This document shows positions 4,667 to 62,022 of a stretch of DNA of 64,000 bases, in pieces (position 1 is the first letter of the stretch; the number at the start of each line of letters is the position of its first letter). The stretch is from positions 27,838,001 to 27,902,000 of the forward strand of contig OZ024761.1 in assembly GCA_964016885.1 (NCBI GenBank). Direction: 5' to 3'. Both the position numbers and the translations under genes were made by a program. The notes beneath the pieces were generated by a model. That model did not search any database. It saw only the letters and a list, made by a program, of their open reading frames with translations, and was not told the DNA's origin. The DNA comes from Eledone cirrhosa (Eukaryota).

Positions 4667-5200
4667 CAGAAGTTATATTTAATGTGTTGGCATTCCAACA
4701 AACTTAAAGATTTATAACTGATATAGAGCACTCACCTGTTTACTGGAGTAAATATTCATTATATTAATCAATGGAAACTATATTTATAAAACCATAATTA
4801 TTTTATTATATATATTTCAAGGGCAACAAAGGCAAATGTTGGTGCGCTTTCATCAGATAAAATACAAAATTTGTTTTATAAATGTTGACATACACGCAGA
4901 AGAACAAGCTTGACGGTTGGAGGTTCCCTGGACTATCCAGCGAACCTCCAACCGTCAATGTTGTTCTTCTGCGGGGATGTCAACATTTATAAAACAAATT
5001 TTGTATTTTATCTCATGAAAGCGCACCAAAATTTTCCTTTGTTGCCCTTGAAATATATATAATAAAATAATTATGGTTTTATAAATATAGTTTCCATTTA
5101 TTAATATAATGAATATTTACTCCACCAAACGGGTGAGTGCTTTATATCAGTTATAAAACTTTTAAGTTTGTTGAATTCCAACAAATTAAATATAACCTTT
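4667..5200. mobile_element. Fold-back element in (TA)n with hammerhead motifs, family A
   Basis: Arms of about 265 bp are imperfect reverse complements around ctggactatccag (~4934); TA tracts on both sides. Confidence 0.85.
4800..4863 (-). ncRNA. Minimal type I hammerhead ribozyme motif (family A)
   Basis: Minus strand: attttat CTGATGA aagcgc..gccctt GAAA tatata TA ataaaat. The plus-arm copy has a mutated core (CTCATGA, 5012-5018). Confidence 0.7.
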
Positions 5201-7026
5201 ATATATATATATATATATATATATAGGTTTGTCTGATATGACGAATTTCACCACATAGCCATAACAAAGAACACGCTGACACACACAGGCATATATATAT
5301 ATATATATATATATATATATATATACATGTGTGTGTGTGTATAAGTATATGTGTATATATATATGTATATTTATATATATGTATATATATATGCATATAT
5401 GTGTATATTTATACATATGCATATATATGTATGTATATATATATATACATATATATATATACATACATTCATATATACATATGTATATGTATATATATAC
5501 ATATATATATATATATATACATATATATATATACACACACACATATATATATACACACACATATATATATATATATATATATATACACACACACATATAT
5601 ATATATATACACACACACATATATATATATATATATACACATATATATATATATATATATATATATATATATATATATATATATATATATATATACACAC
5701 ATATATATATGTATATATATGTATATATATATATATATATATATATATATATATATAAATAAAGAAAGGATGATTACTTTACGTATACAGTCTCGTTGCT
5801 TTTGTTGTTACAGGACAATATTATGTAATCTATGTTAAAGAGATCTGACTCAGTTGAAAACACTAGTGCTCTGATGACAAACTCTTATGATTTCTGTTTG
5901 TTTATGACAGCAAAGTAGTTATCGAGAAAATGTACAACTATTTTATTACATAGAAGTCATGTATTATTAAGGTAAATGACCTGTTATGTCTTATATATGG
6001 AGGTTACAAATATATTCAATATTGTAGCTACATTACTGTTTCCCTTGTTTTCCATTTTTTTTTGTTCATTTTATATTCTGTTTTAACCTTTTCCTTTCAT
6101 ACGTATTTCCACACCACTCGTTGGCATTGCGTCTTTTTCATTTTAGTATTTGTTTTGCTATTTTTTTTTTTAACTTACTTTTTGTTTCTGTAAGAAGTAC
6201 TAGATACCGCCACTCGTTTTTCATGGATTACTAACTCTATACCGCCGTTTAAATTCATGATAGAAACAAATAAATATATATCTATATCTATATATATATG
6301 TACATATACATATATATTTATATATTTCCATATGTAATTTTGTATGTATATATGTATATATATATACATACATATATATATATATAATTTTATATGTAAA
6401 TATTTGTATATATATATATATATATATATGTTTATATATATATATATAAAAATATATATATATATATATATATATATATATATAATCTTGTATGTATGTG
6501 TGTATATATATATATATATATATATATATATTAATATATATAATCTTGTATGTATGTAAACATATATATATATATATATATTATATATATATATATATAT
6601 ATATATTATCTTGTATGTATATGAGTATATATATATATATATATATATATATATATATATATATATACATATAAAACACACACACATACATACATATATT
6701 TATGTATATATAGTGTAAGCAGCTGTTTCATAATAAAATTGTTGTATATTTCCCTCCATAACGATCTTGCTGTCATAACCAAGAGAAATTACAAGAGACT
6801 CTGTCATCCGAGGGATCGTGTTTTCGACTTATTCAGACCTACTCCACTCTCCCAACATTATATTGTCGTATAACAACAAACTACCAACACATCATGACCT
6901 TAACACCACCAACAACATTATAAACAGCAAGGAGAATATCATTAATAACCACAATAATAATAACAATAATAATGATGATGATAATAATAATAATAATAAT
7001 AATAATAATAATAATAATAATAATAA

Positions 7027-7827
7027 TTGTTTCTACGTTAGGCACAAGGCCTGCAATTACCCAGTGTATTACTGGTACTTTATTTTATCGACCCCGTAAG
7101 GATGAAAGGCAAAGTTAACCTCGGCGGGATTTGAACTCAGAATGGCAAGGGCCGTAACTATGCGTCAAAGCATGGCATCCGACCCTCTACCAATACTGCC
7201 AATCCAATAATAATGATAATTGTTTCTACTTTTTGGCACAATGCCAGCAAATTTACCCAGTGCATTACTGGTACTTTATTTTATCGACCCCCGTAAGGAT
7301 GAAAGGTAAAGTTAACCTCGGCGGGAATTGAACTCAGATCGTTAAGGGACGTAACTATGCTGGAAAGCATGGCGTCCGACCCTCTACCGATACTGCCATT
7401 CCACCGCCTTAATAATAATAATAATAATAATAATAATAATAATAATAATAATAATAATAATAATGATAACAACAACAAAAATATCAATAATAAAGGTTTC
7501 TTATATAGGCACAAGGCCAGCAATTTTTTGGGGGAGGGAAAAGTCGATGAAATTCACCCCAGTGCGTGACTGGTACTTTATTTTCTCGACCCCGTAAGGA
7601 TGAAAGGCAAAGTTAACCTCGGCGGTATTTGAACTCAGACCATAAAGGGACGTAACTCTGTGCTGCAAAGCATGCATCTGACCCTCTACCGATGCTGCCA
7701 ATCCACGGCCCAATAATAATAATAATAATTGTTTCTACTTTTGGCACAAGGGCCAGCAATTACACCAGTACATTACTGGTACTTTATTTTATCCACCCCG
7801 TAAAGATGAAAGGCAAAGTTAACCTCA
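7027..7827 (-). mobile_element. Four head-to-tail tRNA-derived SINE copies separated by (AAT)n tails
   Basis: Copies at about 7027-7205, 7221-7410, 7495-7710 and 7729-7827 (truncated). Minus strand shows A-box-like TGGCAGTATCGG, B-box GAGTTCAAATCC, body ggtcgataaaataaagtaccagt and (att)n tail. Confidence 0.9.
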
Positions 7828-8237
7828 ACATAATAGTAATGATAATTCAAGCGTGTTTATTCTGGAAATATTTGAAATAACGTAGAATCGATATTTTATA
7901 TGCTCACAATCATAAATACACACATACACCTACACACACATACACACACACACACACATATATATACATATACGCATACATACACATATATATATATATA
8001 CATACATACGCACATATATACACACACACACTGAGATAACACACAGAGAGACAGTGCAGCTTGTACTACCAGTCACTCATCAGCTGCCGACTGGATATCA
8101 TAGCGATTTCGATGAAAACTTATTGAAGAGTGAATCTGTATTATTATTAGGGTTGTTTCGGAGGACAAACCTGTAGCTCTCTTTTACCCACTCTCTCATC
8201 TATGCAGCCACCATAAGTATAAACACTAACCAAATTA

Positions 8238-59924: not shown

Positions 59925-61297
59925 GCGTTGTGGTGGTGTGGTGTGGTGTAGTGTGGTGTTGTGTGGTGTTGTGGTGTGTTGTGCTGTTGTGGTGTGTTGT
60001 GCTGTTGTGGTTTGGTTGTTGTGGTGTAGTGTTGATGTGGTGTGGTGTGGTGTGTTGTGGTGTGTTGTGCTGTTGTGGTGTAGTGTTGATGTGGTGTGGT
60101 GTGGTGTGTTGTGGTGTTGAGGTTTGGTTGTTGTGGTGTAGTGGTTGATGTGGTGTGGTGTGGTGTGTTGTGGTGTTGAGGTTGGTTGTTGTGGTGTAGT
60201 GTTGATGTGGTGTGGTGTGGTGTGTTGTGCTGTTGTGGTTCGGTTGTTGTGGTGTAGTGTGGTGTGGTGTGGTGTGGGGTTGTTTCGGTGTTGTGGTGTA
60301 GTGTTGATGTGGTGTGGTGTGGTGTGTTGTGCTGTTGTGGTTCGTTGTTGTGGTGTAGTGTGGTGTGGTGTGGTGTGGGGTTGTTTCGGTGTTGTGGTGT
60401 AGTGTTGATGTGGTGTGGTGTGGTGTGGTGTAGTGTTGATGTGTTGTGCTGTTGTGGTTTGGTTGATGTGGTGTAGTGTTGATGTGGTGTGGTGTGGTGT
60501 GTTGTGGTGTTGTGGTTTGTTGTTGTGGTGTAGTGTGGTGTGGTGTGGTGTGGGTTGTTTCGGTGTTGTGGTGTAGTGTTGATGTGGTGTGGTGTGGTGT
60601 GGTGTAGTGTTGATGTGTTGTGCTGTTGTGGTTTGGTTGATGTGGTGTAGTGTTGATGAGGTGTGGTGTGGTGTGTTGTGGTGTTGTTGGTGTAGTGTTG
60701 ATGTGGTGTGGTGTGGTGTGATTGTTGTGGTGTAGTGTTGATGTGGTGTGGTGTGGTGTGGTGCTGTTGCAGTGTTGTGCTGTTGTGGTTTGGTTGATGT
60801 GGTGTAGTGTTGATGTGGGGTGTGGTGTTGTGCTGTTGTGTGTGGTTGTTGTGGTGTAGTGTTGTGGTGTAGTGTGTTGTGTTGATGGTAGTGGTGTGGT
60901 GTTGTTGTGGTGTTGTGCTGTTGTGGGTGGTTGATGTGCTGTTGTGAGTTGTGGTTGTTGTTGGGTGTAGTGTTGATGTGGTTTAGTGTGGTGTAGTGTT
61001 GGTGTGGTGTTGTAGTGGTGTGTGTTGTTGCCGGTGTTGTGCTGTTGTGGTGTTGCTGTTGTGGTGTAGTGTTGATGTGGTGTAGTGGTGTGGTGTGGTG
61101 TGGGGTTGTTGCGGTGTTCTGCTGTTGTGGTGTGGCTGTTGTGGTGTAGTGTTGATGTGGTGTGGGGTGGTGTGGGGTTGTTGCGGTGTTGTGCTGTTGT
61201 GGTGTGGCTGTTGTGGTGTAGTGTTGATGTCGTGTGGTGTGGTTTGGTGTGGGGTTGTTGCGGTGTTGTGCTGTTGTGGTGTGGCTGTTGTGGTGTA
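59925..61297. repeat. (TGTGG)/(TGTTG)-based low-complexity array
   Basis: Seen directly in sequence. Confidence 0.96.
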
Positions 61298-61636
61298 GAT
61301 ACACCAGGACTGATATATTATATATACCAGGAGTGGTATGTCATATATATCGGGATTAATATGTGATATATACCAGGACTGGTATATCATATATACCAGG
61401 ACTTGTATGTCATAAACACCAGGATTAATGTCATATATACCAGTATTGGTTTGTCATATATACCAGGATTAATATGTCATATTCATTAGGATTAATATGT
61501 GATATATACCAGTATGTGTATGTCATATATACCAGGATTAATATGTGACATATACTAGGATTAGGATGTCATATATATATATATATATATATATATATAT
61601 ATATATATATATATATATATATATATATATATATAT

Positions 61637-62022
61637 AAGTATTAATAAAATAGATGTTCTTTTGATCAATTACATTTTATTATACATATTTCCGATGTAC
61701 AACAGTACGTCTTCGTCAGACAAAATATAATAATACATGACATACCCTGAGATGTTATATGGTTAAGATTTAATCATATAACCATATAACATGTTAACCA
61801 TATAACATCTCAGGGTATGTCATGTATCATTAGCTTTTGTCTGATGAGGACGTACTGTTGTACATCCGAAATATGTATAATACAATGTAATTGATCAAAA
61901 GAACATCTATTTTATTAATACTTATATTTTAATATTAATCACTTCTGAAAATTATTGAGTGCTTCCAATCTCCTGTAAAACTCGTTCTTTGACATAATCA
62001 TTGAATATTGTTTAATAAATTA
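61637..62022. mobile_element. Fold-back element in (TA)n, family I, with a 3' tail
   Basis: 61637-~61765 is the reverse complement of ~61794-61923. Confidence 0.9.
61835..61886 (+). ncRNA. Type I hammerhead ribozyme motif (family I); mirror copy at ~61675-61726 on the minus strand
   Basis: ttttgt CTGATGA ggacgtac tgtt gtacatcc GAAA tatgta TA atacaa. Confidence 0.82.

Follow-up and report, generated by a model that had tools for sequence, protein, structure and literature searches.

Hammerhead-bearing islands in the (TA)n tracts of Eledone cirrhosa: Hydra-clade Penelope-like ends and candidate retrozymes with a common insertion signature

What are the short non-coding islands that lie in the (TA)n tracts of a 64,000-nucleotide stretch of the Eledone cirrhosa genome (assembly GCA_964016885.1, contig OZ024761.1, positions 27,838,001 to 27,902,000; hereafter the window), and which enzyme placed them there? 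An earlier note, made from the sequence alone, grouped the islands into families A to J, nine with a minimal type I hammerhead ribozyme and one with half of it, and took them for TA-targeting ends of Penelope-like elements (PLEs) or retrozymes. Both types were found: seven lineages have open reading frames (ORFs) of the Hydra clade of PLEs and three are tandem monomers without an ORF. It is held with good confidence that most of the islands are 5'-truncated Hydra PLE ends, and that families B, D and H are non-coding retrozymes likely copied in trans by a PLE-type enzyme, because their insertions bear the PLE signature.

Hammerhead folds in the islands

Islands were present at every coordinate noted earlier, within (TA)n tracts or abutting them. 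In the window, 11 matches to a strict type I descriptor were obtained against a mean of 0.01 (maximum 1) in 100 block-wise dinucleotide shuffles, and a relaxed one gave 15 intact folds against 0.13 (maximum 1) in 30 shuffles. Pairing of stem I with the partner strand of its own family amounted to 73 bp over 11 families or subfamilies, compared with an average of 16.6 for swapped partners, and a total of 73 bp was reached in none of 20,000 permutations. Enrichment beside (TA)n was also observed, with (TA)5 within 300 nt downstream in 30 of 34 sampled hammerheads (background 27%); these 34 were kept from 41 raw matches in 40 evenly placed 10-kb samples after removal of six matches of one minisatellite and one duplicate. 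At the curated gathering thresholds of Rfam no match was obtained in the window, while the 150 matches listed of 792 in an E-value scan comprised microsatellite look-alikes only; family H had a weak HH9 match (E 0.13).

The copies listed earlier were correctly located, although several fail the hammerhead descriptor and cannot be called intact. B 10251(-) has a change in the core, B 10533(+) is without the 5' strand of stem I, and the descriptor is failed by C 19012(-), C 52071(-), one E unit, I 61835(+) and the right arm of A 4800. Several are not independent: F 33927/44262 and J 27171/37337 represent one local duplication of ~10.3 kb, and the four E units look like one insertion amplified locally. 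Family F does not hold together and splits into F-a and F-b. Stem III, described as self-complementary throughout, is so except in E and J, where it is a hairpin and not a plain palindrome.

Family J, described as carrying only the 3' half, does so in the window; full J ribozymes with a U3:A8 variant core and a long stem II occur elsewhere in the genome, and J is therefore not inherently half a ribozyme. All four bases were found at the free core position N7 among the 100 matches listed of 5,206 genome matches, the 5'-half pattern having fixed or nearly fixed every other core position. A search built on a CUGANGA core and a perfect snap-back hairpin as J stem II gave 38 heterogeneous matches and no more, and the idea was rejected, the true core being U3:A8. 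Exact motif matches number 53,110 for the 3' half and 5,206 for the 5' half, so that ~90% of J copies would be without the 5' half as judged by these differing patterns. The 5' breaks of J concentrate at the inner hairpin of stem II, which is likely a reverse transcriptase (RT) stop; a 5'-break walk stopped within 30 nt in 96 of 96 cases, which probably overstates truncation since one subfamily served as the reference.

Penelope-like ends, candidate retrozymes and a shared insertion signature

The upstream extension advised in the earlier note led, in longer genomic copies of A, C, F-a, F-b, G, I and J, to ORFs for RT and GIY-YIG endonuclease (EN). A single ORF with RT and, at its C-terminal end, a GIY-YIG domain lies between pseudo-long terminal repeats (pLTRs), a trait of EN+ PLEs, in copies of A (L071), J (L372) and F-b (L373). 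EN or RT plus EN in the same orientation was found upstream of C (L374), F-a (L370), G (L376, L377, L380, L384) and I (L428, L429, L440, L441, L444). An open frame of 743 aa in family A (L496) carries RWR, DKT, CxCX5C, CxxC..E and CxH, features given for the Hydra clade in the accessible parts of Craig et al. 2021 (PMC8557442). The full set, with RW[RK], is present in A and F-b; the other Hydra lineages have the motifs in the recovered ORF parts and are 32-55% identical to A. RW[RK] and DKT both occur in A, F-b and J, DKT in G and RW[RK] in K (described below), C, F-a and I having been recovered without N-termini; CxCX5C and CxxC..E occur in A, C, F-a, F-b, G, I and J, and CxH in A, F-a, F-b and J. 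CCHH was absent by eye from the family A ORF, the one inspected for it. A canonical 3' hammerhead and (TA)n insertion, both Hydra-clade traits, were found, J deviating in its U3:A8 variant. GIY-YIG (PF01541) was matched at E 1.5e-4, just under the cut-off, and Pfam RVT_1 gave no match to the Hydra RT pieces, which were identified from their motifs and by visual comparison with published Hydra proteins. A homologue search returned 31 proteins, mostly unnamed, with 31-42% identity, and a Hydra RT query gave 42,444 first-look candidates in the genome. Judged on these sequence characters, A, C, F-a, F-b, G, I and J are 3' ends of Hydra-clade PLEs. A further family, K, absent from the earlier note, has a tail that continues into the N-terminus of a Hydra ORF (L040, E 2e-23); no canonical hammerhead was resolved in it.

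An origin of F-a as the 3' untranslated region of a neighbouring RTE remnant was tried and rejected, the RTE-like piece not being common to other F-a copies. The top GIY-YIG matches were mainly to Neptune-like families that are not joined to the window families. The families at L012, L027, L035 and L075, which are presumably Neptune-like, have (TA)n ends and hammerhead-like motifs of the U3:A8 variant with a CCGG palindrome; an ORF in L085 is taken to be Poseidon-like.

The families share an insertion signature, many of the loci counted for it having been chosen by similarity. Of 744 family matches, 656 end at one of two sites, and, against a background of 10%, (TA)4 follows 261 of the 289 short ends and 273 of the 367 long ones; many long ends without (TA)4 are tandem read-through (B, D, H) or CA repeats (E). 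Where both ends of a fold-back could be classed, 129 of 151 pair a long with a short end, against about half by chance, 17 being long+long and 5 short+short; 39 more pairs have an unclassed end. Among the Hydra-type families the proportion is 105 of 112. An optional tail between two 3' ends and an inverted 5'-truncated copy, as in PLEs, were thus both found. The arms of a fold-back differ by 0-1 base in four of six loci, compared with 4-13 between loci. Apices vary among loci and 5' breaks are scattered, contrary to the idea of fixed fold-back mini-elements; a fixed apex in family A was ruled out by the same differences from locus to locus.

A tail hairpin, RCTC-N11-32-GAGY-RCY, was found in all eight Hydra-type families, with its start about 10 nt or less from the short end (p<0.008 for each family, 5,000 shuffles), with a compensated GCTC/GAGC pair in G. 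A similar hairpin lies 3' of the long end at the five distinct matches of a second-hairpin expression in ~2 Mb of loci, all of them tail-to-ORF junctions (A twice, F-b, J, K); it was absent from one candidate G junction. The motif is visible in the published Hydra-2_Amil, Hydra-1_Ajap and Hydra-2_Ajap (coral, sea cucumber) and not in the ends shown for Hydra-1_Obim, as far as the accessible parts of those sources go. The hairpin likely positions each start of reverse transcription in the Hydra families. Family E has the Hydra-type tail hairpin.

Families B, D and H have tandem periods of 322-329, 483-485 and 417-435 (monomers of about 324, 484 and 422 nt), G+C contents of 36-43% and longest ATG-initiated ORFs of 34-71 aa, and B and H have a stem I of 6-7 bp and a stem II of 4 bp. 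None of the three runs into a shared ORF in the fetched loci, a genome-wide search for an ORF-bearing parent not having been made. These families fit the published definition of non-LTR (long terminal repeat) retrozymes, and at the RNA level they are candidates. At loci chosen by pattern, one of two phases marks the end of 40 of 49 arms as read by eye, about 37 of these 40 being followed by TA, while 5' breaks are scattered. Ten-unit arrays in D and H, and one longer H array, carry at their 5' end a copy in inverted orientation. The 10-unit array of H has its end at the long site, whereas the short site is the end of its inverted copy. In H a helix spans the long start and the monomer junction, with one compensated pair (RNAalifold); this GC:12/AU:12 pair is modest evidence, since it represents one subfamily split.

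The elements of the window are as follows.

4463..4593, family K, tail and short inverted end of another Hydra PLE
15517-15564, 26291-26722, 26829-26949, 36441-36872, 36979-37099, 49674-49724, 49809-50230 and 54773-54860, further K pieces
4664..5199, family A fold-back, Hydra PLE 3' end; minus-strand hammerhead intact, core 4856, predicted cut after 4807; core of the right-arm hammerhead mutated
10141..10728, family B retrozyme, 324-nt monomer; inverted copy and partial tandem, no intact hammerhead here
11046..11313, plus strand, family A subfamily; intact hammerhead 11125, inverted arm without tail
18883..19389, family C fold-back, Hydra PLE end; intact hammerhead 19199(+)
19550..19786, minus strand, family D retrozyme, 484-nt monomer; 5'-truncated, short-site end, intact hammerhead 19698
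20976..21682, plus strand, family E, a small fold-back repeated locally as four tandem units; stem II weak, tail hairpin of the Hydra type
27087..27290, family J fold-back, Hydra PLE end; broken within stem II, duplicate at 37253-37456
33881..34045, minus strand, family F-a, Hydra PLE end; hammerhead 33977, duplicate at 44216-44380
37866..38097, minus strand, family F-b, a different Hydra PLE; hammerhead 37965, full-length copy L373
45702..45898, family J fold-back, independent insertion and not part of the duplicated pair
52038..52218, minus strand, family C subfamily; mutated cleavage site
54411..54722, family G fold-back, Hydra PLE end; two intact hammerheads, right arm alone carries the tail
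54887..55380, family H retrozyme, 420-435-nt monomer and inverted arm; hammerhead 55057(-)
55464..55700, family A subfamily; hammerhead 55558(-) and inverted tail piece
56505-56564, lone family A tail
61637..62022, family I fold-back, Hydra PLE end; intact hammerhead 61719(-), right arm alone carries the tail

The ~10.3-kb duplication (26294-36171 and 36444-46750, 97-100% identical in the unique parts) lies beside a 200-N gap and may be real or an assembly artefact. Islands at 27319-27463 and 37487-37631 begin with the short end, inverted, of a still different family; in L281 a longer copy has GAAA, a UA site and a stem III that is palindromic.

Competing explanations and a proposed mechanism

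The alternative that survives best, although it is considered unlikely, is that B, D and H are satellites derived from pLTRs of unseen autonomous PLEs, their single copies being truncated ends and their arrays products of unequal crossing-over; the families themselves would pass through no RNA step. Such a route is discussed in the accessible part of Li et al. 2026 (10.64898/2026.07.22.740005). It agrees with the structure of two independent H arrays, L371 and L337-L340 (G000:C1:49.58 Mb and 19.31 Mb), in which 420- and 422-nt units alternate, neighbouring units differing at 15-18 positions and every second unit being near-identical; L371, the one long enough, has diverged end units. This two-unit period could reflect either copying from a circular template that was a dimer or duplication of two units at the DNA level. 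Against the satellite origin, what lies upstream of the hammerhead in the fetched copies is the tail of the monomer itself, and 11, 9 and 17 of 25 loci each of B, D and H exceed one unit (overlapping loci counted separately). Further, the 3' ends are fixed whereas the 5' breaks can lie at any point of the circular map, and arrays bear terminal inverted copies.

It is more doubtful still that the retrozymes were copied by a long interspersed nuclear element (LINE) of the RTE or CR1 type: two internal 3' ends with overlapping inverted copies are the PLE signature, 5' inversions of LINEs usually involving non-overlapping segments, and the RTE-like piece beside F-a is peculiar to that copy among those compared, even though LINE remnants lie in the window and the accessible part of Cervera 2020 (PMC7229834) leaves LINEs or PLEs possible. 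That the islands are miniature inverted-repeat transposable elements mobilised by a TA-targeting DDE transposase is very improbable, their palindromic shape, short length and TA flanks being offset by unequal arms, variable apices, many copies without inversion and the lack of fixed terminal inverted repeats and uniform length, and largely refuted by the continuation of longer copies into RT/GIY-YIG ORFs; no link to a DDE transposase turned up, no search having been aimed at one.

For the preferred explanation, Hydra ends together with retrozymes copied in trans, the following course is proposed. The GIY-YIG endonuclease would nick both strands of a (TA)n tract, and each nick would serve as primer for reverse transcription from one or other of two start sites within the RNA, giving one long-ended and one short-ended cDNA; both would stop early and be joined head to head as a fold-back. 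In the Hydra families a small RNA hairpin a few bases 3' of each start would set it, and the tail would correspond to the spacing between the two hairpins, since each start would be set by its own. The same two starts would be present in the RNA of the retrozymes, whether tandem or circular after the predicted cleavage by the hammerhead, and copying beyond one unit could yield insertions from sub-monomer size to ten units. Cleavage by the hammerheads of the window families is predicted from their sequences; a 2017 paper reportedly described PLE hammerheads that cleave dimers. The course has a parallel in vitro, as the accessible parts of Frangieh 2024 (PMC11167929) describe an Anolis PLE that cuts both strands at AT-rich DNA and has two internal starts bounding its tail.

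Several observations weigh against the trans-copying explanation or parts of it. Among retrozyme fold-backs, a long end is joined to a short one in only 24 of 39 cases, a weaker one-tail rule that arises partly because tandem read-through scores as a long end, and many locus choices were similarity-based and not random. B, D and H are without the Hydra tail hairpin, and (TA)n ends occur in Neptune-like families of this genome too. Both long H arrays examined show a two-unit block that DNA-level duplication explains as well as rolling copying. The hairpin expressions were composed after the sequences had been inspected. For family E, 45 loci showed no ORF in the 1.5 kb upstream, and CA follows the long end in 11 of 34 cases. 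According to the accessible parts of two sources, insertion by the PLE tested in vitro did not need hammerhead cleavage (PMC11167929), and eight of nine Xenopus retrozyme dimers failed to cleave (10.64898/2026.07.22.740005).

Genomic setting and related systems

The genome measures 3.0 Gb, and (TA)6 or longer tracts form 13% of the window as compared with 5% of a 400-kb sample. Insertions of the window families numbered 47 in the 40 samples, equivalent to 7.5 per 64 kb; with 18, the window is ~2.4-fold richer than the genome average. Exact motif matches genome-wide were 7,160 for F, 3,634 for G, 7,242 for H, 383 for E, 473 for B and 949 for D, and the reversed-motif control gave none for every family motif; for F a DNA similarity search found no matches, whereas the pattern search gave these 7,160. 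Extrapolation from the 400-kb sample gives roughly 250,000 hammerhead motifs in the whole genome, a rough figure since the bootstrap range on the 41 raw matches spans 200,000-430,000, and many of the sampled motifs fall in further families beyond the window set. Nested piles, in which elements of different families were inserted in (TA)n tracts from earlier insertions, were seen for instance in L124, L133, L140, L178 and L282.

The window also holds decayed LINE 3' ends without a Pfam match at 34058-34760 (-), 44400-45060 (-) and 51124-51900 (+), taken to be RTE-like and CR1/L2-like. SINE-like (short interspersed nuclear element) copies of one or two families are found at 7028-8620, 9407-9484, 14701-15456, 50379-50464, 57504-57739, 59292-59355 and 62260-63092. 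A ~44-bp minisatellite and long CCA/ACC-rich minisatellites at 57923-59076, 30100-33800 and 40200-44190 account for long spurious open frames.

The published comparisons that follow rest on the accessible parts of the sources cited. Craig et al. (PMC8557442) already list hammerhead-bearing, (TA)n-targeting Hydra elements, including one octopus family, Hydra-1_Obim from Octopus bimaculoides, and the Hydra group described here therefore consists of new members of a known clade. The likeness extends to the C-terminal GIY-YIG domain, RW[RK], DKT, the CxCX5C linker, CxxC and CxH near the end, the 3' hammerhead, the (TA)n targets and the inverted 5'-truncated copies. In contrast to that single octopus family, at least eight divergent lineages are present in this genome, none of which by eye matches the published Hydra-1_Obim hammerhead; J differs from the canonical Hydra-clade hammerhead in its U3:A8 core, the tails are about 70-100 nt long as against 30-40 described for PLEs, and those parts of PMC8557442 make no mention of the tail hairpin. 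Poseidon PAc of Anolis (PMC11167929) resembles the present elements in its two internal starts bounding an optional tail, AT-rich targets and upstream hammerhead, but belongs to another clade and has its starts in an AC-rich stem-loop inside the ORF, whereas the starts here lie upstream of the ATG, just 5' of the RCTC/GAGY hairpin. Minimal PLE hammerheads (Cervera and de la Pena 2014, PMC4209133) share the palindromic stem III, the high diversity within a genome, the U3:A8 variant and opposed pairs 100-700 bp apart; the ~250,000 motifs estimated here, with a different descriptor, exceed the 2,000-9,000 of that study and the 126,247 given for axolotl.

B, D and H resemble non-LTR retrozymes (PMC7229834; 10.64898/2026.07.22.740005) in being non-coding tandem monomers with one type I hammerhead each, H and D (422 and 484 nt) lying at or above the usual 170-400 nt. 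Their PLE-type tail, inversions and (TA)n targeting are unreported for non-LTR retrozymes in those parts of the two sources, in which the support for mobilisation of animal retrozymes by PLEs consists of co-occurrence and sequence homology. The invertebrates in Li et al. are three insects and one coral, and the word 'ribozyme' occurs zero times in the accessible portion of the O. vulgaris repeat annotation (PMC13282606). Literature found by title and abstract, a scope outside which subscription journals, Repbase and Dfam lie, contained no cephalopod retrozymes, no PLE insertion signature on retrozymes and no report of the Hydra tail hairpin; the hammerhead estimate for this genome was likewise absent from the papers searched. 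The PLE ends were to be expected, but the retrozyme insertion signature and the tail hairpin open two questions to direct test.

A broader view, for which the chances appear evenly balanced, is that animal retrozymes are PLE parasites using two-start, two-nick priming, that a conserved hairpin, common to corals, sea cucumbers and this genome and present twice, sets the Hydra starts and makes the tail, and that this genome is among the most ribozyme-rich known. A large repeat class of the genome could be annotated as Hydra PLE ends and retrozymes, those of the window escaping the curated Rfam thresholds. Insertions of B, D and H with the PLE signature at mapped bases would provide defined RNAs and start sites that can be tested, and the tail hairpin offers a concrete hypothesis for the choice of internal start sites by a telomerase-related RT.

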